From NCBI RefSeq assembly GCF_044324785.1, contig NZ_CP172127.1: a stretch of 64,000 bases of DNA, one strand, 5' to 3'. Both the position numbers and the translations under genes were made by a program. The notes under the pieces are model-generated. The model was not told the DNA's origin, did not search any database, and saw only the letters and a list, made by a program, of their open reading frames with translations. This document shows, piece after piece, positions 723-18,496 of the stretch. This DNA comes from Escherichia coli (lineage in GTDB: Bacteria > Pseudomonadota > Gammaproteobacteria > Enterobacterales > Enterobacteriaceae). Positions within the stretch are counted from its first letter, which is position 1. Every line of letters starts with the position of its first letter.

Positions 723-3235
723 TGCCAGTCGTACCAACAGTATCCGGACGTCAGGTTGAGAGTCGTGGAGTTCAGTCAGCAGGCTTGCAGACGTTTTCTC
801 AGCAAGGTATTGGTGATGCTTTTGTTCGGGCAGGGACAGAGGCAATTGATGTTTTGGGGCAGGCAAAACAGCGTGCCAATATCGCTCTGGCTCAGGAGGC
901 ATCTCTTAACCTCAGTCAGATAAGCAGCGATCTGCTGAATAATCCTGAAACAGGATTGCTTAACCTGAAAGGGAAAAATGCTATTGGAAAAGGCCATGAG
1001 TATACGCAGCAGTTTGATGCTCAGGTCGAACAACTGGCTATGTCGCTGCCGGATGAACAGGCTCGTAATGCTTTCATGCAGCAGGCGCAGCAGCAGCGCA
1101 TTCAGTTCACTACGCAGGCCGGGCGACACGAGATAGGGCAAATTAATGCCTACGAAGAAGGCCAGTTTCAGGCGACACTGCTGAACAATGGTAAAAATGC
1201 CGCAGCATTGTATGGCGACAACGCCGCATACGTATTGGCTAACAAACAAACTTTCCAGCAAATTGAGGAGTACGGTGTTGCACATGGCTGGAGCAACGAG
1301 CAAATCCAGGCCAAGAAAATCGAGTTTAAAGAGAAGGTTGCTGATGCTGCATTGTCCCAGTGGTCGGCAAACAATGCGACCGCATTCATCCAAAGTAATG
1401 GCGAGTTAAGTGATACTGCTGCTGGAGCTCGCCGTGCTGTAGCAGATAGTGACTCTTCCGAGCGTGCCCGTGGCATACGCAACAATAACCCAGGAAATCT
1501 CGAATACAGCAAAACTAATCCGTGGGTAGGCCAGACCGGTGATGATGGTCGATTTGCTAAATTCGAAACACCTGAACACGGGATTCGTGCATTAGGGCGG
1601 AACCTGATGTCGTATCAGAGGCAGGGTATTGATACCGTCAGCGAGATAATTAATCGCTGGGCACCGCCTGCTGATAAAAATGACACTATGTCGTATATCA
1701 AAGCAGTGTGCGAACAACTTGGCGTTTCTGCTGATGAGCCTCTCGATGCATCTAATCCTGATACCCTGAAGGCGCTTTGTGCAGCCATTATCCATCATGA
1801 GAACGGTAGCCAGCCATACAGTGATCAGCAGTTAACTGCTGGTGTCAGTGCAGCACTTGGTTTATCAACAATTCCAACCAACACCAAACGCTATACCGGT
1901 AATGCAGCATTCGATGCGGCATCTCCTGAGGCGCAGGCAAGTTTTATGCGACAGGCGGATCAACTGCGTCGGCAGCAGCAGGCTGAATATAAAACGATGA
2001 TTGACAGCCAGGTTCGCGATGCGACAGCTGCGTATATGCGTGGCGTTGAATTTCCTAACCCACCTGGTGAGGCTGATTTTATTGCAGCTTATGGAGTAAG
2101 AGAAGGAAACCTGCGATATACCGAGTTCAGAAATACGCAAATCGCCGGACAGTATATAGGCTCTTTCCGCAACATGCCGACAAGCAGCATTACAGCATAT
2201 GTTGAGCAATTACGCCCGGATACTGGTGAGACAGGGGAGGGTTATGCGGCACGAGCCGCTCTTTATGACAACGTTGTGTCGGCTGCAAGTCAGGTGATAA
2301 AGCAGCGACAGGCTGATCCTGTACAGTTCTCTCTTGCCGCCGGACAGACAAAGCCTATCGACATGAGCAATAAGGATAACTTTGGACAGAGCGTTGCCTT
2401 GCGTGCTGCTCAGGTCAGTGACCTTGCTAAGTCATATGGCACTCCACTGACGTTCTTTTCCAAAGACGAGGCCAATCAGATCGGTGTTTTCTTTCGTGAT
2501 GCGCCCGTTTCCCAACAGGCAGCATATCTCGATACCATCAGGCAGAGCACTGGTGGTGGGCAGGTGTATATGTCAGCACTACAGCAGATCAGTGCCAACG
2601 CTCCATCTGCTGCCGTTGCCGGGATACTGATGGATAAGCCAGGTGGTATTTTGGCAGAAAAAAACTGGTTTAATCCGGATGTTTCCGTGTCTCCTGAAAC
2701 CGCTGCGCAGACAATTCTTGCTGGCGCGGCGGCTCGTAAAGGTACTGATGATGCGAAAGGTATTCCGATGCCTAAAGATGCTGATCTTCGCCTTGAGTTT
2801 TCTGACATGGTGAAGGATGCATTTGCTGGTGACGCTCAGGGGGCATCAATGGCATACGAGATCGCAAAGGATTATTACGCTGGTGTGATGGCGAAAAAAG
2901 GCGTGGTATCAGGCGAAATTGACAATGATGTCTGGAAACAGGCTGTTAACGTAGCTACAGGTGGCGTGCATGACTATAACGGAATGGGGAATGTCCTTTT
3001 GCCGTGGGGAATGTCTGCAGAGCAATTCGATAAGCAGGTTAATCAGGCTTGGAATGAACAAGTTGTCGGCTCTGGGATAAAAACACCGCCTGGTCAGTAT
3101 GGTTTGCAAAGTTACGGCGATAGTCAGTACCTGGTGAAACTTGGTACTGGTTATCTGCTGAAAGATGATGGTTCTCCCGTTGTTCTTAATCTGACACAGA
3201 AGCGTCAGAGATTCTCCGGAGATATTCCGCAATGA
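722..3235 (+). CDS. Large phage virion/ejection (core or tail-hub type) protein, about 837 aa
   Basis: ORF 647..3235 with likely start at ATG 722 overlapping upstream stop; coiled-coil-like Gln/Ala-rich stretches; conserved-looking NNNPGNLEY segment. Confidence 0.5.
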   Translation: MPVVPTVSGRQVESRGVQSAGLQTFSQQGIGDAFVRAGTEAIDVLGQAKQRANIALAQEASLNLSQISSDLLNNPETGLLNLKGKNAIGKGHEYTQQFDAQVEQLAMSLPDEQARNAFMQQAQQQRIQFTTQAGRHEIGQINAYEEGQFQATLLNNGKNAAALYGDNAAYVLANKQTFQQIEEYGVAHGWSNEQIQAKKIEFKEKVADAALSQWSANNATAFIQSNGELSDTAAGARRAVADSDSSERARGIRNNNPGNLEYSKTNPWVGQTGDDGRFAKFETPEHGIRALGRNLMSYQRQGIDTVSEIINRWAPPADKNDTMSYIKAVCEQLGVSADEPLDASNPDTLKALCAAIIHHENGSQPYSDQQLTAGVSAALGLSTIPTNTKRYTGNAAFDAASPEAQASFMRQADQLRRQQQAEYKTMIDSQVRDATAAYMRGVEFPNPPGEADFIAAYGVREGNLRYTEFRNTQIAGQYIGSFRNMPTSSITAYVEQLRPDTGETGEGYAARAALYDNVVSAASQVIKQRQADPVQFSLAAGQTKPIDMSNKDNFGQSVALRAAQVSDLAKSYGTPLTFFSKDEANQIGVFFRDAPVSQQAAYLDTIRQSTGGGQVYMSALQQISANAPSAAVAGILMDKPGGILAEKNWFNPDVSVSPETAAQTILAGAAARKGTDDAKGIPMPKDADLRLEFSDMVKDAFAGDAQGASMAYEIAKDYYAGVMAKKGVVSGEIDNDVWKQAVNVATGGVHDYNGMGNVLLPWGMSAEQFDKQVNQAWNEQVVGSGIKTPPGQYGLQSYGDSQYLVKLGTGYLLKDDGSPVVLNLTQKRQRFSGDIPQ

Positions 3236-8267: not shown

Positions 8268-8293
8268 TCCACAAAAAAGCCCGCAGCGCGGGC
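8268..8293 (-). terminator. Rho-independent terminator of the two-gene cassette
   Basis: Minus strand GCCCGCGCUGCGGGC hairpin followed by UUUUUUG, overlapping stop codon at 8293-8295. Confidence 0.6.
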
Positions 8294-8733
8294 TATTCTT
8301 CTTCATCATTAAAAAGCGGATTGTTGTTTCCATCTGATGAAAGGAAAGGTATGTGTTCTCTTGAAAATCCAACAATGACAATTTCATTATCATTTTTTGC
8401 ATAATGAATGCATTCATTAGAATGCCTTCCGCCAGGGTTGAAATTTAAGTTAATGGTATAATTCTTAAATGTGTTTGGATACCATGTTGGCCCACAATGA
8501 TAATGCCAATAATTCTCTTGCTCATAATTGTCTGAGCCGGGAATTTTATCATGGTTATCATCAACCCACGAGGGCTTGTTTTTTCCAACAAGCGCCCTTC
8601 CATTGGCAACATCCTCTAAAAAACTTTGTATGATTTTTATTTCATCATCAGTAAGGAAAGGTCCGTCTACAGCGAAAGGGGTGTTGCTTTCCCCATGTAG
8701 AAAACTATTAGATATTCTAATGTTAAACTTCAA
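8293..8733 (-). CDS. Unknown 146-aa protein, no internal Met, proposed TTG start, acidic C-terminus (AT-rich cargo gene)
   Basis: Frame of ORF 8293..8874; AGGAG 6 nt before TTG 8733; upstream part of the 193-aa ORF overlaps a better-supported small gene in another frame. Confidence 0.45.
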   Translation of the reverse strand: MKFNIRISNSFLHGESNTPFAVDGPFLTDDEIKIIQSFLEDVANGRALVGKNKPSWVDDNHDKIPGSDNYEQENYWHYHCGPTWYPNTFKNYTINLNFNPGGRHSNECIHYAKNDNEIVIVGFSREHIPFLSSDGNNNPLFNDEEE

Positions 8734-8753
8734 GGAAAACTCCTGATGTGCTT

Positions 8754-8921
8754 CTATTTGGAGCGAAATGCCGCCTTGAAGTCGCTGAAAGATGTTCCTG
8801 TCTGGTAAACCATATCCTTGTCGCGCTCTTTGCTTGCGCGGCCAAGCATAACTTTTCCAATGACATCCCAGCATTGCTTGGCTTGTTCATTGTGCTGAGT
8901 ACGATTTTTCAACGCTGTCAT
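8754..8921 (-). CDS. Unknown small basic protein, 55 aa (MTALKNRTQHNEQAKQCWDVIGKVMLGRASKERDKDMVYQTGTSFSDFKAAFRSK)
   Basis: ATG 8921 preceded by AAAGGAGG at 7-nt spacing; hand-translated; below ORF-track length cutoff. Confidence 0.45.
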   Translation of the reverse strand: MTALKNRTQHNEQAKQCWDVIGKVMLGRASKERDKDMVYQTGTSFSDFKAAFRSK

Positions 8922-8947
8922 ATCGCGCCTCCTTTACCTTTAAGGTA

Positions 8948-8976
8948 ATAGTACGCTATTCACCCACAGTCTGCAA
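8948..8976 (-). promoter_or_regulatory. Sigma70-like promoter of the two-gene cassette (TTGCAG, 17 bp, TACTAT)
   Basis: Minus-strand reading about 27 nt upstream of ATG 8921. Confidence 0.4.
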
Positions 8977-9020: not shown

Positions 9021-9713
9021 TCAGAAGAACCCTGCTTTGTCGTTGATGTACTCCGCGTGCGTCTGGATATCACGCAGGCATTTGCTCACACCGACGATGT
9101 AGCAGAACATGGTGGTCAGCTCCGCCGCCGCGCCCGATACGTCGTGCCCGTCTTCCTGTAACTGGTTCAGCAGATTCATCAGCAGTGAGTTCTCCGTCAG
9201 GCCGAGAACACCAGACGGCGAATGAATCAGGCTGCGGTAGCCGGGCTTCAGCGGGGCGCTGTAGGTTTTGTTCTCTATCTTCATCGCCTGCATTACTGCT
9301 GACGCCGTGGCGTTGGCTACCTGGTCGGCAACCATCTTTATGCGTTCTTCCTGCGGGAGCGAGTTTTTAATGTAACTTCCGGTGCGACGGATCTGAGGAA
9401 GAACCTCACCTGTAACCCATTCAAGAAATCTGAATGCTCTCGTTCCCTCTGTCATTGCCTCTTTGCAACGCAGAATAAGGATGTAGAGACCTGATTCTGA
9501 AACGATGGATAGTTCTTGTATTCCACCAGGGGTCTGTATTGAATACAGCCCCTTTTTGTTCCAGCCTTTTTTATCAAGTTTTCTCGCTTGTGTAACATCA
9601 ATATTCAAAGCATTGCACACATCTTTGGTGACAAACCAAGGTTCTCCGTCAATCATGAACATACGGATCTGGCAGGATGACTCAAAGGAAAAGATGGAAG
9701 GTTTGGTATTCAT
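9021..9713 (-). CDS. Bro-N domain antirepressor-like protein, about 230 aa
   Basis: N-terminal FSF...IR..MIDGEPWFVTKDVCNALNI matches Bro-N/phage antirepressor signature; start ATG 9713 after AAGGTGA. Confidence 0.7.
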   Translation of the reverse strand: MNTKPSIFSFESSCQIRMFMIDGEPWFVTKDVCNALNIDVTQARKLDKKGWNKKGLYSIQTPGGIQELSIVSESGLYILILRCKEAMTEGTRAFRFLEWVTGEVLPQIRRTGSYIKNSLPQEERIKMVADQVANATASAVMQAMKIENKTYSAPLKPGYRSLIHSPSGVLGLTENSLLMNLLNQLQEDGHDVSGAAAELTTMFCYIVGVSKCLRDIQTHAEYINDKAGFF

Positions 9714-9857
9714 GGCGATCACCTTTGTAGTTAGGTTAATCACCACCGCTGAGACCAATCAGATGGTGGTGAACTGTGCAGAGTTGGTCTTACCGGCTAC
9801 AAAGGAACCCGGCGCACCTTTCGGTGCCCCCACACAGCCCACCATAGAATAGGTGCG

Positions 9858-9876
9858 CTTTACACATAAAAAAACC
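9858..9876 (-). terminator. Weak candidate terminator (4-bp GC stem plus U7) ending the LexA-controlled transcript
   Basis: Minus strand GCGG-auaa-CCGC then UUUUUUU. Confidence 0.3.
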
Positions 9877-9890
9877 GCTTATGCGGCATA

Positions 9891-9944
9891 TGTGCCTCTG
9901 TAGTAATCCGGGAGACCAATCCCGGCACTGGATTTTGCCAGTGC
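9891..9944. other. Three-way-junction forming element: 7-bp outer stem enclosing two 6-bp hairpins
   Basis: tagtaat / ccggga-gaccaa-tcccgg / cactgg-attttg-ccagtg / attacta, all perfect complements. Confidence 0.4.
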
Positions 9945-9960
9945 CTGATTACTATGGCAC

Positions 9961-9989
9961 AAGAGGAGTGCTTATATTTACCGCAAAGG
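9961..9989. other. Perfect 12-bp stem hairpin with 5-nt loop
   Basis: cttatatttacc gcaaa ggtaaatataag. Confidence 0.45.
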
Positions 9990-10023
9990 TAAATATAAGC
10001 ACTCCAGTTGGTAATTACAAACC

Positions 10024-10281
10024 TTATCTGGTTTGTTTTCGTAATTGTTCGGCACAATAGTCTAGATGTGTTTGCAGATCCTGCATAGACATCTGTGAGC
10101 TGGTGACGTAGTTAATCAGTGCAGTCAGTTCGGCAAGTGGGCCATCGACATTAAATCCATCCTTATCGAGATCCCGGAGTAATTTCATCAAGTGCGATCC
10201 CTCCACCAGTGACCTGACGCCTCCCGGCGTGTGAATCCTTTCGGTAAATCCGTCTTCCAGTGGATAGTGATACTGCTGCAT
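10024..10281 (-). CDS. 85-aa protein, stand-alone paralogue of the C-terminal domain of the Bro-N protein; candidate SOS-induced antirepressor
   Basis: ATG 10281 after GGAGAAG; alignable to residues about 170-230 of the 9021..9713 product; LexA box 22 bp upstream. Confidence 0.55.
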   Translation of the reverse strand: MQQYHYPLEDGFTERIHTPGGVRSLVEGSHLMKLLRDLDKDGFNVDGPLAELTALINYVTSSQMSMQDLQTHLDYCAEQLRKQTR

Positions 10282-10302
10282 CTTATCTTCTCCATGCAAT
10301 AA

Positions 10303-10318
10303 CTGTATAAATATACAG
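10303..10318. promoter_or_regulatory. LexA (SOS) box CTGTATAAATATACAG
   Basis: CTGT-N8-ACAG with AT-rich spacer, 18/20 match to TACTGTATATATATACAGTA including flanks. Confidence 0.65.
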
Positions 10319-10476
10319 TATCAAATAATTTGTTTGCTATCCAGCACGTTTTGCAAATCACCTGAAAGGTAATATCTTTTCGTATTTATGGATTATCTAT
10401 CCATATGTGGTTTTTCAGGTAATAGAATAACCAGATATGCGGCGCAACGGGTGCTGCGACTATCTGGAGATTTAAC

Positions 10477-13233
10477 ATGACGGTCTCAACCGAAGTTGAC
10501 CACAACGAATACACCGGTAACGGCGCTACGACATCATTTCCGTATACCTTCCGTATTTTCAAAAAATCCGACCTGGTTGTTCAGGTGTCTGACCTGAACG
10601 GGAACGTAACAGAATTGGTTCTGGATACCGGTTATACGGTAACTGGGGCGGGCACTTATAGTGGCGGTTCTGTTGTTCTTCCGTCGCCGCTTGCTGCTGG
10701 ATGGCGAATTACGATAGATCGTGTGCTTGATGTAGTGCAGGAGACAGACCTTCGCAATCAGGGAAAATTTTTCCCCGAAGTGCATGAAGATGCTTTTGAC
10801 TACCTGACGATGCTGATCCAGCAATGTTTTGGGTGGTTCAGACGTGCATTGATGAAACCATCTTTGCTTGCAAAATATTACGATGCAAAGCAAAACAGAA
10901 TTTCTAACCTTGCAGATCCATCACTTGAGCAGGATGCTGTAAATAATCGCTCAATGCGTAATTATGTTGATGCTGCAATCGCCGGAGTTGTTGGTGGTTT
11001 TGGTTGGTTTATTCAGTATGGTTCTGGAGCAGTATACCGAACGTTCCAGGATAAGATGCGGGATAACGTTAACGCTCTTGATTTTGTTCCGTTTGAGCAA
11101 AGATATGCTGCATTAAATTTTGAAGTTGATGCGTCTGAATGGTTAATTAATGCGATAAATTCTGGTGCAAGTGTCGTTAGAATACCTGCAGGTAAATGGA
11201 TGATTTCTAAGAACATAGATGTGCCTCCTGGAGTGTCATTAATTGGTGATGGCATTGATTATTGGGATACATATAGACCAGCGCCTGAAAGATTATTAAA
11301 AAGTTGGAGTAAAGGAACCCATCTTGTATTTACTGGTGATGGAGAAAAAAACAAATATTTTTTTAACATCTCTAATGAAAGACCAGTTAAAATTGTTGAA
11401 GGGATATCTTGTAAGTTCACTGAGTTTACAAATGAAGATTCTGTAGGTGTTACTCCTGCTACACCAAAAGCCATGAGCGTAGCTGTTAGTATCAACAGGG
11501 CATCACAGTTACGCAACCTGAGAATAATGGTAAGTAAAAATGGTATTGAAGGATACAATAACCCTGATTCTTATTCATTGGGTGATGACTGGGATATAGG
11601 GTTGCATGTATACGATAGCTGTGATTCAGTTATTGATAACGTACAGATTGTCGGCTATTGGAGGGTAAAAGGACTACTACTGACAGAAAATGACGGGAGC
11701 CTTTCAATGAAGGGAAATCCTGAAAAAACGCACTTTAATAACGTTTATGTCCAGTCAGGGATCGCGATAAGGAATAGCCCTCAGATTGATCTTGTAAGTA
11801 ATACTGAAAGCTCAGTGACATTTAAACATAAAAAGTCGATGAGAATAACTTCAGTTAAACAGTTTAAAATTGCTGGCAGTGAATTAGTATATACGTATTC
11901 AGATGCATCATTTGATGGAACTAACATCACACTATCTGGTATTTCTCCTGAAATACAAGGTACAATAAGTGTAATCAGGTTTCCGTCAATTGGTAATAAT
12001 TTTAGCGGGACTGTTTTTGAGAATACAGTAGCCACTACTCTTGATCATACATCAGGTAAGCCATCAGAATACTTTGGCCTTCCTGCATCCTTTGCATTAG
12101 AGGTTGATGGTTTCCCTGTTCGTAATTTAAGGTTTGATAAATTCAAAGCTCAAACAACATTTGATAAAGGAAATTGCATTTTTGGTGATTGCCGTGATGT
12201 TAAAATAACATCATCTGAGTTTGAAAATGGAATTATGATTGCGTATAACCTGACCGAGACTCAGGGTTATACAGGAAATCTTAGATTTTTTGCTTCTGAT
12301 CTTCAGAGCAGCGTTAACACAAGTGAGTTTAAACCAAGAGACGCATTTGTAGACAATAGACAAATAAAAACGGAGTTTACTGATGGTTCGTTCATTATAA
12401 AGAACTGGAGGCCTACAGATACAAAAATACAATGGTCGTCTGGAGCAGATGCTATTGTTCTTAGAGAGTCACCTGACGAACAATCAAACGGAAATATTTA
12501 CGGGCATCACATTGATGGTAAAAGATGGATTAATGTTAGTGGATATAACAAAGATATAAATATTTCATCAAGAAACTTAAGCGTAAAAAACCATGGTGAT
12601 GACTCTGCAGTTATTAATATATTCGGCGACTCTGGAAATATTGCCATTAAAGGTAATTTTTCACCAATTATTGATAACAGCAAATCTCTTGGTGCACCAT
12701 CATTTAGATGGGCACAGGTTTATTCTGCGAACGGTTCGATAAACACATCAGATGGTAGAGAAAAAAGTGAACCGATTAGTACAAGTGAGCTCAGCTTGTA
12801 TATGTCTCGTGGTTATGAAGGTGATGCAATTCTGGATGCATGGGGAGATATCAGGATTGTAGCTTTTCGCTGGCTTGATGCCGTCAGGGAAAAGGGAGAT
12901 GGTGCCCGCTGGCATTTTGGTGTTATAGCACAACAAGTGAGAGACGCTTTCCTCGCGCATGGGATTGATGGAACCAGATTTGGCCTTCTCTGTTACGATG
13001 AATGGGATGATAAATACGCGCCAGTGATGGCGGTAAGGATGATCACTAAAGTTGTGGATGGCGTCGAAATTGAGATGGAAGAAGAATACGAAACAGAAGA
13101 GCGAACTCTGGTTTGCAAGGCTGGAAATAGGTGGGGTATCCGTACTGACCAGTGTTTATGGCTTGAGTCAGCTTATTTGCGTAGAAGAATCGAAAAAATA
13201 GAATCACGTCTTGCAATGCTTGAAAGTAGCTAA
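10477..13233 (+). CDS. Tailspike/tail fibre, 918 aa: T7 gp17-like N-terminal anchor, AT-rich central receptor-binding part, C-terminal intramolecular chaperone (peptidase S74-like) domain
   Basis: ORF track; GGAG RBS; N-terminal pattern resembling podovirus fibre anchors; C-terminal SDGREK motif region; GC drop in the middle. Confidence 0.8.
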   Translation: MTVSTEVDHNEYTGNGATTSFPYTFRIFKKSDLVVQVSDLNGNVTELVLDTGYTVTGAGTYSGGSVVLPSPLAAGWRITIDRVLDVVQETDLRNQGKFFPEVHEDAFDYLTMLIQQCFGWFRRALMKPSLLAKYYDAKQNRISNLADPSLEQDAVNNRSMRNYVDAAIAGVVGGFGWFIQYGSGAVYRTFQDKMRDNVNALDFVPFEQRYAALNFEVDASEWLINAINSGASVVRIPAGKWMISKNIDVPPGVSLIGDGIDYWDTYRPAPERLLKSWSKGTHLVFTGDGEKNKYFFNISNERPVKIVEGISCKFTEFTNEDSVGVTPATPKAMSVAVSINRASQLRNLRIMVSKNGIEGYNNPDSYSLGDDWDIGLHVYDSCDSVIDNVQIVGYWRVKGLLLTENDGSLSMKGNPEKTHFNNVYVQSGIAIRNSPQIDLVSNTESSVTFKHKKSMRITSVKQFKIAGSELVYTYSDASFDGTNITLSGISPEIQGTISVIRFPSIGNNFSGTVFENTVATTLDHTSGKPSEYFGLPASFALEVDGFPVRNLRFDKFKAQTTFDKGNCIFGDCRDVKITSSEFENGIMIAYNLTETQGYTGNLRFFASDLQSSVNTSEFKPRDAFVDNRQIKTEFTDGSFIIKNWRPTDTKIQWSSGADAIVLRESPDEQSNGNIYGHHIDGKRWINVSGYNKDINISSRNLSVKNHGDDSAVINIFGDSGNIAIKGNFSPIIDNSKSLGAPSFRWAQVYSANGSINTSDGREKSEPISTSELSLYMSRGYEGDAILDAWGDIRIVAFRWLDAVREKGDGARWHFGVIAQQVRDAFLAHGIDGTRFGLLCYDEWDDKYAPVMAVRMITKVVDGVEIEMEEEYETEERTLVCKAGNRWGIRTDQCLWLESAYLRRRIEKIESRLAMLESS

Positions 13234-15364: not shown

Positions 15365-15385
15365 TAAATAATTGAGTGGGAATGA
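15365..15385 (+). other. guaA: attR core region with remnant of guaA 3' end (reads ...IIEWE stop)
   Basis: att gag tgg gaa tga at 15371-15385 matches the GuaA C-terminus as I recall it, preceded by an in-frame stop where phage sequence begins. Confidence 0.45.
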
Positions 15386-15410
15386 TTTGACCCTGCACTA
15401 TGAATGAACA

Positions 15411-15440
15411 AAACCCTCTGTTACTACAGAGGGTTTTTTA
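15411..15440. terminator. Rho-independent terminator (native guaA terminator, possibly bidirectional)
   Basis: ccctctg-ttacta-cagaggg followed by ttttttat. Confidence 0.6.
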
Positions 15441-15477
15441 TCTTCAAGAATTATAGGCTTGAAGTTACTTACATCGA

Positions 15478-16017
15478 TTAATTAAACCAGCTGTCCGATT
15501 TGTTCTCTTCTGCTTTGCCCACGCTTTTCATCAGATCGCGACCGCCCTCAGTCATATTCCTGTTTGCGTCAGCTTCAGATTGCACCACATCGGTTTGCGC
15601 AGCTTTGTGCTTCAGTTCCTGATCGATAAATTCGTTTTCGCGCTTAACGCGGGCTTCTTCTTTCGCCAGCGCCAGTTTTTGTTTCTGAATCTCTAAGCTG
15701 CGTAGCTCATCTTCATAACTTTGATCGCGTTTTTTGTCCGCAGTGGCTTCGGCGTCCAGTTTATCCTGACGAGCTTTCTTATTTGCCGCTGCCGTTGCCG
15801 CTCTTTTATTAGCGGCGGCCTGGGCATTTGCGCGACGTTGCTTCTCTTGCTGGATTTCCCTGTTGCGCTCCGCGACCCATTCGTCATGCTGCCTTTGCTC
15901 TTCATTTTTACCTTGCTGTTCCGCTTCTGCGACAGCAGAGAGTTGATCCTGCAATGATGAGGCGATAGCCGGATAGCTTAAGGAGGCTAAGATGGCGCAA
16001 AGAAAAACTTTCTTCAT
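15478..16017 (-). CDS. yfgI: YfgI, 179 aa, signal peptide, charged repetitive protein
   Basis: ORF track; length and synteny with K-12. Confidence 0.8.
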   Translation of the reverse strand: MKKVFLCAILASLSYPAIASSLQDQLSAVAEAEQQGKNEEQRQHDEWVAERNREIQQEKQRRANAQAAANKRAATAAANKKARQDKLDAEATADKKRDQSYEDELRSLEIQKQKLALAKEEARVKRENEFIDQELKHKAAQTDVVQSEADANRNMTEGGRDLMKSVGKAEENKSDSWFN

Positions 16018-16032
16018 GACTCCTCCTGATTA

Positions 16033-16551
16033 TTAGCTCTTTTCAGGACATTTGGTATTTGGCTGAATACGCGTTTCGTTATACGTCGTGGTAATAACAA
16101 CGGCTAAACCTGTCGTAAACTGGCACTCTTTACCCACCTGGGTGGAGGTATACACTTTGGTGCCTTCCTTATACGTTAGAGAAACACCTTCCACTAAGGT
16201 TTTATCATTCACCATAGAACCTGCTGCCGCGCCTACAGCTCCGCCGCCAACTGCACCTGCCGTCGTTCCGGAATTGCTGCCAGACCCGACGTTGTGGCCA
16301 ATAACACCGCCAGCGACTGCACCAATAAGCGCGCCGAAGGCTTGTGCGTTTCGTTTATTTTGGGAGTTGTCTACGGCAACTTTTGCGGGAAGAATGGAAA
16401 TAATATTAACGGTTTTAGTTTCTTGTTTGGTATTCAGTTGATCGGTTTGATAAACATCGGCGGCATGATCATCAGCATTTGACTGGCATCCTGCCAGAGT
16501 GAATGACGCTAACATTGCCACAGGCAGAAGACATTTTTTAAATTTCATCAC
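16033..16551 (-). CDS. yfgH: YfgH outer-membrane lipoprotein, 172 aa, Gly-zipper region
   Basis: Lipobox LAGC; synteny. Confidence 0.8.
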   Translation of the reverse strand: MMKFKKCLLPVAMLASFTLAGCQSNADDHAADVYQTDQLNTKQETKTVNIISILPAKVAVDNSQNKRNAQAFGALIGAVAGGVIGHNVGSGSNSGTTAGAVGGGAVGAAAGSMVNDKTLVEGVSLTYKEGTKVYTSTQVGKECQFTTGLAVVITTTYNETRIQPNTKCPEKS

Positions 16552-16861
16552 TATTCCTTGTTATACACATTACGAAAAATAAGACATTTAAGATCATCAA
16601 AAGAGGAAAGTAAATGTATTGCGTATAAAGGAATAGATTAAATTTATTAAAATTCATGTGGAAAATAATTTATAAAAATACATCATTAAAACATATGTAT
16701 TAATTTTATATTTATTTCGCAGCCAAACAGGATAAACATCAGTCAGGACAAAGACGTAAAATTTAAGATGAAAGAATATCTGCCGCTTTGATAATCCCAA
16801 AGAGCAAAAGCATCCGACAGCGAGGTGCCGTTATGTTCTGTGAAAGTGGAGAAGGTAACCG

Positions 16862-17053
16862 CTAACGTTGTACCGGTGATTCGACGGAGAGTGTGGATTG
16901 CTGAGCTTCTTTTTTGCTCTGATGGTGCTGCCATGCACCGACGGACGAGTAGATAAAACGGCCAAAGAAGAAGATAAAGCTGATGAGCAGTACGATACGG
17001 GTCATGCGACTGTTAAATCGGTGTCGTTTTCGCATACTGGTTGCCTGACTCAC
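16862..17053 (-). CDS. yfgG: YfgG small membrane protein, 63 aa
   Basis: ORF track; synteny. Confidence 0.7.
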   Translation of the reverse strand: MSQATSMRKRHRFNSRMTRIVLLISFIFFFGRFIYSSVGAWQHHQSKKEAQQSTLSVESPVQR

Positions 17054-17301
17054 AAAAGGTTCCTTGAAGTATGTCCCACGCTGTGGACGGTACTTACATT
17101 AAGGCACAACAGGACAAAATGGTCAATTCTTCGTTATGTAAAAAAGCGTCAGTGGATACATATTTTAATGTTATGGAAGTTAATTTAATTATTTACAATG
17201 ATGATGTAATAATGATGAATTAACATGATAAACGTAATAATTCATTAATCAGGGTTATTTTGTTTGATATATATCAATTGGAACTTTCATATGACACTTA
17301 G

Positions 17302-18496
<1,195 letters not shown>

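Follow-up and report, generated by a model that had tools for sequence, protein, structure and literature searches.

A probable immI-type cassette with IsrK and C4 RNAs ahead of a BRO-N antirepressor gene in an epsilon15/phiV10-like prophage of Escherichia coli

What is encoded by a densely structured, apparently noncoding stretch of DNA in the 3' region of a LexA-box gene in an Escherichia coli prophage, and why does it contain such long perfect stems? The question is raised by positions 9858-9990 of a 64,000-nucleotide (nt) stretch of contig NZ_CP172127.1 (assembly GCF_044324785.1), which was analyzed as a whole and is called the window below. An initial annotation, made from the letters of this DNA alone, had described there a large hairpin, a three-way junction, and a GC hairpin followed by a run of T, and had proposed that they form part of a noncoding RNA or of a site that acts at the DNA level. 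Here we report that the region is very probably the front half, with the control region, of an immI-type cassette, in which RNAs of the IsrK and C4 families would gate the translation of a BRO-N::Ant antirepressor, and which is preceded by a candidate operator of the phage repressor Rep. The device itself is known, and the window holds a fresh instance of it that standard annotation has left out: the RefSeq and GenBank records at the matching DNA list only 'hypothetical protein' and 'BRO-N domain protein'.

IsrK and C4 RNAs on the minus strand

The Rfam scan that had been suggested as a check of the initial annotation returned two families at gathering score in the 64-kb window, IsrK and C4, both matched at full length on the minus strand (Table 1). 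IsrK lies in the 3' region of the LexA-box gene, where a noncoding RNA had been suspected, and ends at the terminator-like hairpin that had been noted. C4 is the decisive partner and begins just beyond the range that the initial annotation had covered. Together with a motif that is annotated as a repressor operator in phage epsilon15, these two curated RNA families explain an element that had been called unexplained. The Rfam family c4-a1b1 (RF03163) overlaps IsrK with a score of 38.4, below its cut-off of 46.7. Matches of FtrA, miRNA, and scaRNA models in the region were far below their cut-offs and were treated as chance. No further Rfam small RNA (sRNA) such as IsrJ or sRNA-Xcc1 was detected in the window; as a separate observation, IsrJ and sRNA-Xcc1 occur after the antirepressor gene downstream of IsrK-C4 in Salmonella phage SW-37 (locus 1717-1791) and in Stx2_EH0787 (locus 1543-1626).

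The density of secondary structure is far beyond chance. The minus-strand RNA from 10023 to 9860 folds with -74.3 kcal/mol, compared with -40.3 +/- 4.0 kcal/mol for shuffled sequences (z = -8.47). The covariance analysis that had been proposed alongside the folding, performed with 12 homologues, separates the conserved from the incidental parts of this structure. Hairpin 1 of IsrK shows compensatory changes at 5 of its 8 pairs, hairpin 2 is 96% paired, and the terminator is present in all homologues. The three-way junction, placed by the initial annotation at 9891-9944, does appear in the minimum-energy fold, and both of its small hairpins exist, but its outer stems use positions 9945-9961, outside that range. 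These stems, which need sequence upstream of the IsrK 5' end, are 84-87% paired with little covariation, and the junction was therefore rejected as a conserved fold in favor of two adjacent hairpins and a terminator. The GC hairpin with its seven T on the minus strand is likewise real, and runs from 9887 to 9867 rather than over 9858-9876. Because its stem is short, the terminator is probably leaky; read-through has been documented for the homologous terminator of Gifsy-1 (PMC4825925).

The judgment that the region is noncoding agrees with its match to RNA families and with the fate of the short frame through the adjacent C4. An AUG in the C4 5' end opens a frame of 28 codons in the window (9759-9845, minus strand), and in phage phiV10 a frameshifted one of 35 codons (phiV10 locus 2526-2633, minus strand), so that it is the RNA that is conserved. 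As the frame is not conserved, a protein-coding reading of the C4 region was rejected. In 'orf45' of Gifsy-1, too, the nucleotides are conserved and the protein is variable (PMC12197685). Between C4 and the antirepressor start no conserved frame was found that would resemble icd and be coupled to ant.

The relation of both RNAs to the downstream gene is suggested by pairing sites, which were found as exact complementary segments in the extracted phage modules. Segment a' of C4 is complementary to IsrK positions 26-32 (a1, in the loop of hairpin 2) and to positions 4-10 of the BRO-N::Ant leader (a2), and segment b' is complementary to IsrK positions ~41-50 (b1) and to the stretch of the leader bearing the Shine-Dalgarno sequence (b2). 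Among 11 modules there are four a-types (UUGGUCU, UUGGCGU, UUGAGAC, and UUAGCAC) and several b-types, and the copies of a and b in IsrK, C4, and the leader change together in each phage. In the fold of the long transcript, a1/b1 pair with a'/b' in cis, which resembles the translationally silent 'structure A' of Gifsy-1 (PMC4825925). The matching position also suggests that Gifsy-1 'orf45'/STnc1160 and C4 are the same element.

Beyond the window, we identified the IsrK-C4 pair in 10 other phage loci (phiV10, Tyrion, two Klebsiella phages, EC.W1-9, TL-2011b, three Stx-type phages, and APSE-7), in each case upstream of an antirepressor gene wherever the record carries annotation. A P1-like phage and a Gifsy-like Salmonella phage have C4 with an IsrK-like leader. 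For APSE, both IsrK and C4 RNAs had already been annotated by the authors (PMC7313666).

Table 1. Features of the candidate cassette and its surroundings (positions in the window; two-number minus-strand entries written high to low follow the RNA)
Feature	Position	Strand	Sequence or detail	Basis
IsrK-family sRNA	9868-9944	-	model positions 1-77 of 77	RF01394, 74.7 bits (cut-off 50)
IsrK hairpin 1	9945-9924	-	stem 9924-9931/9938-9945	
IsrK hairpin 2, a1 in loop	stem 9908-9913/9920-9925	-	a1 = UUGGUCU, 9919-9913	
IsrK b1	9903-9895	-	CUACAGAGG; pairs with b', including one G-U pair	
IsrK intrinsic terminator	9867-9887	-	GCCGCAUAAGCGG, then seven U (GCCGC AUAA GCGG)	
C4 antisense RNA	9762-9849	-	model positions 1-87 of 87	RF01695 (clan CL00128), 78.6 bits (cut-off 45)
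C4 b'	9805-9797	-	CCUUUGUAG	
C4 a'	9790-9784	-	AGACCAA	
Leader of BRO-N::Ant gene with C4 target sites a2, b2	9719-9758	-		complementarity to C4
a2	9758-9752	-	UUGGUCU	
b2	9730-9722	-	CUACAAAGG; overlaps Shine-Dalgarno AAGGUGA (9725-9719)	
BRO-N::Ant fusion antirepressor	9021-9713	-	230 amino acids	Bro-N PF02498 and C-terminal Ant domain
Palindrome	9960-10010		23-nt arms, 18 perfect pairs, 5-nt loop	inverted-repeat analysis, fold
Palindrome core, epsilon15/SPC32H-type Rep operator motif (candidate)	9978-9992		TTACC-GCAAA-GGTAA	epsilon15 annotation, motif enrichment
Operator-like site, one mismatch	10358-10372		TCACCTGAAAGGTAA; between ant LexA-box promoter and tail-fibre gene (10477-13233)	
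Operator-like site, perfect	8934-8948		TTACCTTTAAGGTAA; downstream of BRO-N::Ant gene	
Distal promoter-like site	9992-10020	-	TTGTAA-17-TATATT; ends just upstream of operator	
Extended -10, proximal IsrK promoter	9951-9959	-	TGcCATAGT; -35 box missing in window	
Small antirepressor Ant, SPC32H/epsilon15 gp19 type (predicted)	10024-10281	-	85 amino acids	PDB 5d50 chain E match
LexA box, promoter region of small ant	10301-10320	-	AACTGTATAAATATACAGTA; core CTGT-N8-ACAG, 10303-10318	read from sequence

The palindrome, its core and the flanking promoter elements

The large hairpin had been described as a 12-bp stem at 9961-9989. It exists, and this span corresponds to one arm and the loop of a longer palindrome, in which the stem (9965-9982/9988-10005) has 18 perfect pairs and the arms (9960-9982/9988-10010) are 91% complementary. 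Folded as DNA, the palindrome reaches -20.1 kcal/mol (z = -10.1). Further copies of the long arm were found neither in the window nor in phiV10; only the short core recurs.

This core is probably the Rep operator of the prophage, and we propose it as a candidate binding site. In the window it reads TTTACC-GCAAA-GGTAAA (9977-9993), exact at the 10 inner positions relative to (A)TTACC-N5-GGTAA(T) and different at the outermost one; the epsilon15 record annotates ATTACC-N5-GGTAAT sites as repressor-binding. With up to one mismatch allowed, phiV10 has 14 copies of the motif where 0.52 would be expected, and these cluster to either side of its repressor gene. Around the Rep gene in the immunity region of a 98.7%-identical E. 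coli prophage there are 7 copies against 0.13 expected, and the Rep protein encoded there is a match to the structure of SPC32H Rep (5d50_A, E = 4e-42). Four sites lie in the prophage portion of the window (8934, 9978, 10358, and 13587), and the one at 10358 takes the same relative position as a site that the epsilon15 annotation assigns to the repressor, between gp19 and the tail-fibre gene. Across all Uetakevirus-type modules, the TTACC-N5-GGTAA center is the only invariant part of the palindrome. The motif is absent from the Stx and APSE modules, which have other repressors, and the corresponding place in the P1-like module is taken by a sequence resembling a C1 operator. A protein site at the DNA level, as the initial annotation had offered, is the best reading of the large hairpin, most likely as a repressor operator; the suggested recombinase or replication site is unlikely, and the attachment (att) core lies 5.4 kb away. 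As an intrinsic terminator the large hairpin was rejected: its stem, AT-rich in the center, is followed on the minus strand by UCUUGUGCC without a U-tract, and the hairpin was not called as a minus-strand terminator.

The candidate operator lies between a distal promoter-like site and the proximal promoter, so that bound Rep would block both. An equivalent of the distal -35/-10 pair was found in eight of nine Uetakevirus-type modules despite their divergent sequence. The proximal -10 box has its end 6 nt ahead of the IsrK 5' end in each of the 14 modules compared, and a proximal -35 box (TTTACA or TTGACG) is present in 11 of them, being absent from the window, phiV10, and the O157:H7 strain TT12B. 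The proximal promoter takes the form TTTACA-17-CATAGT with a TG motif in the Uetakevirus types, and TTGACG-18-TATATT or TATAGT in the Stx and APSE modules. C1 represses the P1 c4-icd-ant operon in a comparable arrangement (PMC8198154); for Op51/P51 of phage P1, secondary sources were used.

The perfect stem has an identifiable ancestor. In 204 of 211 matching E. coli records the corresponding 91-nt stretch has 90-95% identity, is 3 nt longer, and forms an imperfect palindrome; the perfect stem is rare (~2 of 211). The common form, as read from three such strains, is GGAGTGC-TTATA-TTTACC / TTTGC / GGTAAA-TTTACATC-GCACTCC, where the proximal -35 box TTTACA sits in the right-arm bulge, TTTACATC. 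The palindrome is likewise imperfect in all more distant relatives, and this form is therefore ancestral. In the window, phiV10, and TT12B, TATAA stands in place of the bulge and complements TTATA of the opposite arm exactly, and this replacement both creates the 18 perfect pairs (a 41-bp perfect palindrome) and deletes the -35 box. Quasi-palindrome correction via template switching is a known mutation class, and the exchanged bases bear its signature. The loop is flipped in phiV10 only (GCAAA, against TTTGC in TT12B and the window), and loop inversion is a typical event at inverted repeats. Two a/b backgrounds carry the perfect form, that of the window being UUGGUCU and that of phiV10 UUGGCGU, so that the correction either recurred or spread by recombination between cassettes. 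The perfection of the arms is likely a mutational product rather than a designed structure, one that probably weakened the own promoter of IsrK.

Two adjacent antirepressor genes and related systems

By nucleotide identity, the prophage of the window is an epsilon15/phiV10-like podovirus (Uetakevirus) of E. coli. Its DNA is 90.6% identical to phiV10 and 82% identical to Enterobacter phage Tyrion, and prophages with ~98% identity to it occur in ~280 of 5426 complete E. coli genomes.

The LexA-box gene upstream of IsrK is, on the strength of its homologs, an SPC32H-type antirepressor gene, ant. Its product matches chain E of PDB entry 5d50, 'Anti-repressor protein', over residues 2-84 (E = 4e-47), it belongs to phrog_450, and the SPC32H homolog of this small open reading frame (ORF) carries the annotation 'ant'. 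The LexA box ahead of it (10301-10320; ORF 10281 to 10024) is perfect, and its sequence, AACTGTATAAATATACAGTA, fits the E. coli LexA-box consensus; LexA control of ant in SPC32H is taken from secondary sources. The gene downstream of C4, which starts at 9713, encodes a Bro-N domain (PF02498, E = 4e-13) fused to ~77 C-terminal residues that match SPC32H Ant (5d50_E, E = 9e-14), and it falls into phrog_130, 'anti-repressor Ant' (PHROGs). As it ends in a second copy of the Ant domain, two Ant domains are encoded in adjacent genes, and these would be under different controls, LexA for the small ant and C4 RNA/Rep for BRO-N::Ant. In the related phage vB_EcoP_ZX5, over-expressing the BRO-N antirepressor (ORF4) caused a lytic shift and reduced lysogeny (PMC9782041). 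The small ant is present in epsilon15 and SPC32H, and the IsrK-C4-BRO-N block is absent from them, which makes the block a mosaic addition.

Among the known systems, the closest are the immI operon of P1/P7 and the IsrK locus of Gifsy-1. The P1/P7 operon has the order c4 antisense RNA, icd, and ant (Citron & Schuster 1990, summarized in PMC8198154 and PMC12197685). It shares with the window an RNA of the Rfam C4 family, segments a'/b' that pair both with upstream a1/b1 and with a2/b2 at the ribosome-binding site, a downstream antirepressor, tandem promoters with an operator motif for the primary repressor, and a/b sequences that vary as specificity types. It differs in that b2 of the window lies directly on the Shine-Dalgarno sequence of the antirepressor gene without an icd-like coupled frame, in that the window has a BRO-N::SPC32H-Ant fusion and an SPC32H-type Rep in place of Ant1/2 and C1, and in its life as a plasmid prophage, compared with a 39-kb integrating podovirus here. 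The IsrK-orf45 (STnc1160)-AnrP locus of Gifsy-1 in Salmonella (PMC4825925) shares the IsrK family, a promoter, two hairpins, a leaky terminator, a conserved RNA segment, and an antirepressor, as well as the pairing of mid-IsrK with a downstream segment in the long transcript (structure A in that study). There the segment is treated as translated orf45, whereas in the window it scores as C4 and its frame is not conserved; the upstream gene is antQ in Gifsy-1 and a LexA-box ant here, and the proximal -35 box has been lost here.

The Rep-Ant lysogeny switch of SPC32H and epsilon15 (PDB 5d50; Kim & Ryu 2013, cited in PMC7380047; summarized in PMC9638917) is matched by a nearly identical small Ant (E = 4e-47) behind a LexA box, by the Rep homolog in the 98.7%-identical relative, and by the operator motif in the palindrome core. 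It lacks the IsrK-C4-BRO-N cassette, with which the lineage of the window adds a second, RNA-gated antirepressor. More distant parallels are phages P4 and P22. In the seqA-CI RNA-seqC system of P4, a processed small RNA pairs with target copies upstream and downstream, a likeness pointed out in PMC4825925, but CI terminates transcription instead of blocking a ribosome-binding site, and no sequence-family match was found. The immI region of P22 (mnt, arc, ant, and sar RNA) occupies the same place in the genome, with injection/virion genes on one side and the tail-spike gene on the other, and likewise keeps an antirepressor under tight control that includes an RNA, but acts through the Mnt and Arc proteins and a true cis-antisense sar RNA, and no homology was found.

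Elsewhere in the window, the right end of the prophage is marked by the att core ATTGAGTGGGAATGATT (15371-15387), 5.4 kb from the structured region; the same att core is known for phiV10, epsilon15, and vB_EcoP_ZX5 (PMC9782041). No tRNA or tmRNA was found within the 64-kb window. A tRNA-like fold for the junction was rejected, and so was the palindrome as a tRNA-like element or integrase attachment site, given this result and the position of the att core. Beyond the att core lie E. coli yfgG/yfgH/yfgI (15400-18400), and an IS5-like element at ~17370-18362 is one that only few genomes have at that site. On the other side of BRO-N::Ant, an ORF of 193 amino acids (8293-8874, minus strand, phrog_5954) has the perfect operator-like site at 8934-8948 just upstream on the minus strand, and phiV10 has no gene at that position. 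It may be a repressor-controlled accessory gene. A defence-system search (PADLOC) gave no match for this ORF or for a neighbouring one of 118 amino acids.

Proposed control and alternative readings

The immI-type reading of the cassette implies the following control, drawn by analogy. In a lysogen, Rep would shut the cassette, as C1 does at the P1 immI promoter. As in P1/P7 and Gifsy-1, transcripts would either stop at the leaky IsrK terminator, yielding short IsrK, or read through into C4 and the antirepressor mRNA. C4 would then pair with a2/b2 and block translation of the antirepressor, as in P1/P7, and would act likewise on an incoming phage whose a/b type matches. IsrK, as a mimic of the target, would compete for C4 and thereby open the antirepressor message.

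Several points weigh against this reading. The core is assigned as an operator from a GenBank annotation and from the enrichment of its motif, and the type of Rep, whose gene falls beyond the window, is deduced from relatives. The ends of the transcripts, the processing of C4, and the binding of Rep are predicted. Energies of the full-length C4-target duplexes reach only z ~ -2 against shuffled sequences, with overlap between cognate and non-cognate pairs; being uninformative, they leave the support for pairing to the short exact sites. The window has no conserved frame of the icd or orf45 kind, and the accounts of P1 and Gifsy-1 disagree on whether the middle RNA is a repressor or a translated upstream frame. 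Finally, a larger hairpin could itself be selected, as several lineages have additional outer complementarity (ATGGG/CCCAT, TGCA/TGCA).

One alternative, which we consider unlikely although it is the best of those weighed, is that the long hairpin acts as RNA at the 3' end of ant. It could protect the message from 3' exonucleases, be cut by RNase III, or signal pausing or termination, and would so separate ant from the IsrK cassette. The hairpin begins 14 nt past the ant stop codon and dominates the fold of the read-through RNA, its outer complementarity is kept with differing sequences in KpST11 (ATGGG/CCCAT) and EC.W1-9 (TGCA/TGCA), and epsilon15 has a terminator directly after gp19. Yet the stem lacks a U-tract, and invariance is confined to the operator motif and does not extend over the whole stem. 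EC.W1-9 and TL-2011b keep the element though ant is not directly upstream, and the perfect stem, found in ~2 of 211 E. coli records, was gained at the cost of a promoter box.

Slightly less probable still is a role of IsrK mainly as an Hfq-dependent sRNA that acts in trans on host messages (lysogenic conversion) rather than as a decoy within the cassette. The Rfam family is named as an Hfq-binding RNA, the terminator has a typical U-tail, and the loop of hairpin 1, GCAAAAUC (CAAAAU at 9937-9932; CAAAAUC), is nearly invariant in 12 of 12 homologues and has no identified part in C4 pairing or elsewhere in the cassette. Against this, a1/b1, the variable parts of IsrK, change in exact step with C4 and the leader, which favors a role within the cassette, and the demonstrated target of Gifsy-1 IsrK is its own read-through transcript (PMC4825925); host-directed and cassette roles are not mutually exclusive.

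It is very improbable that the palindrome serves recombination or replication, as a cruciform or hairpin substrate, or marks the insertion junction of the IsrK-C4-ant cassette. Homology to epsilon15 does stop at the ant stop codon beside the palindrome, the cassette is mobile between phage types, and the loop inversion of phiV10 relative to TT12B and the window shows that hairpin-mediated DNA events occur there. But the neighboring genes include none for a recombinase or for replication, and the att core of the integrase is elsewhere (15371-15387). The core motif at 14 phiV10 places, centered on the repressor gene, suits an operator and not a unique recombination site, and any long inverted repeat would be expected to give rise to loop inversions and corrected arms.

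Within the immI-type reading, a further extension is offered tentatively. Terminator prediction found no terminator between ant and IsrK, so that the SOS-induced ant message would carry IsrK, with its a1/b1 decoy, as a 3' untranslated region. It is conceivable, though we would not count it as likely, that the two antirepressors are wired in series through RNA, and that the decoy has become largely SOS-dependent after loss of the proximal promoter. If so, DNA damage would both free Ant and titrate C4, unlocking BRO-N::Ant in a feed-forward manner. On a broader level, the data suggest that Gifsy-1 IsrK/orf45 and P1 a1b1/c4, still listed apart in recent reviews (PMC12197685), are one device.

Read as an RNA that mimics the C4 target, IsrK links the Gifsy-1 and P1 literatures. 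The palindrome offers a clean natural example, on a regulatory site, of a single templated event that apparently produced a perfect 41-bp palindrome and at the same time removed a -35 box. For the epsilon15/phiV10-like prophages of E. coli, the cassette would mean that behind the LexA-controlled antirepressor stands a second one, which is probably RNA-gated and apparently controlled by Rep.

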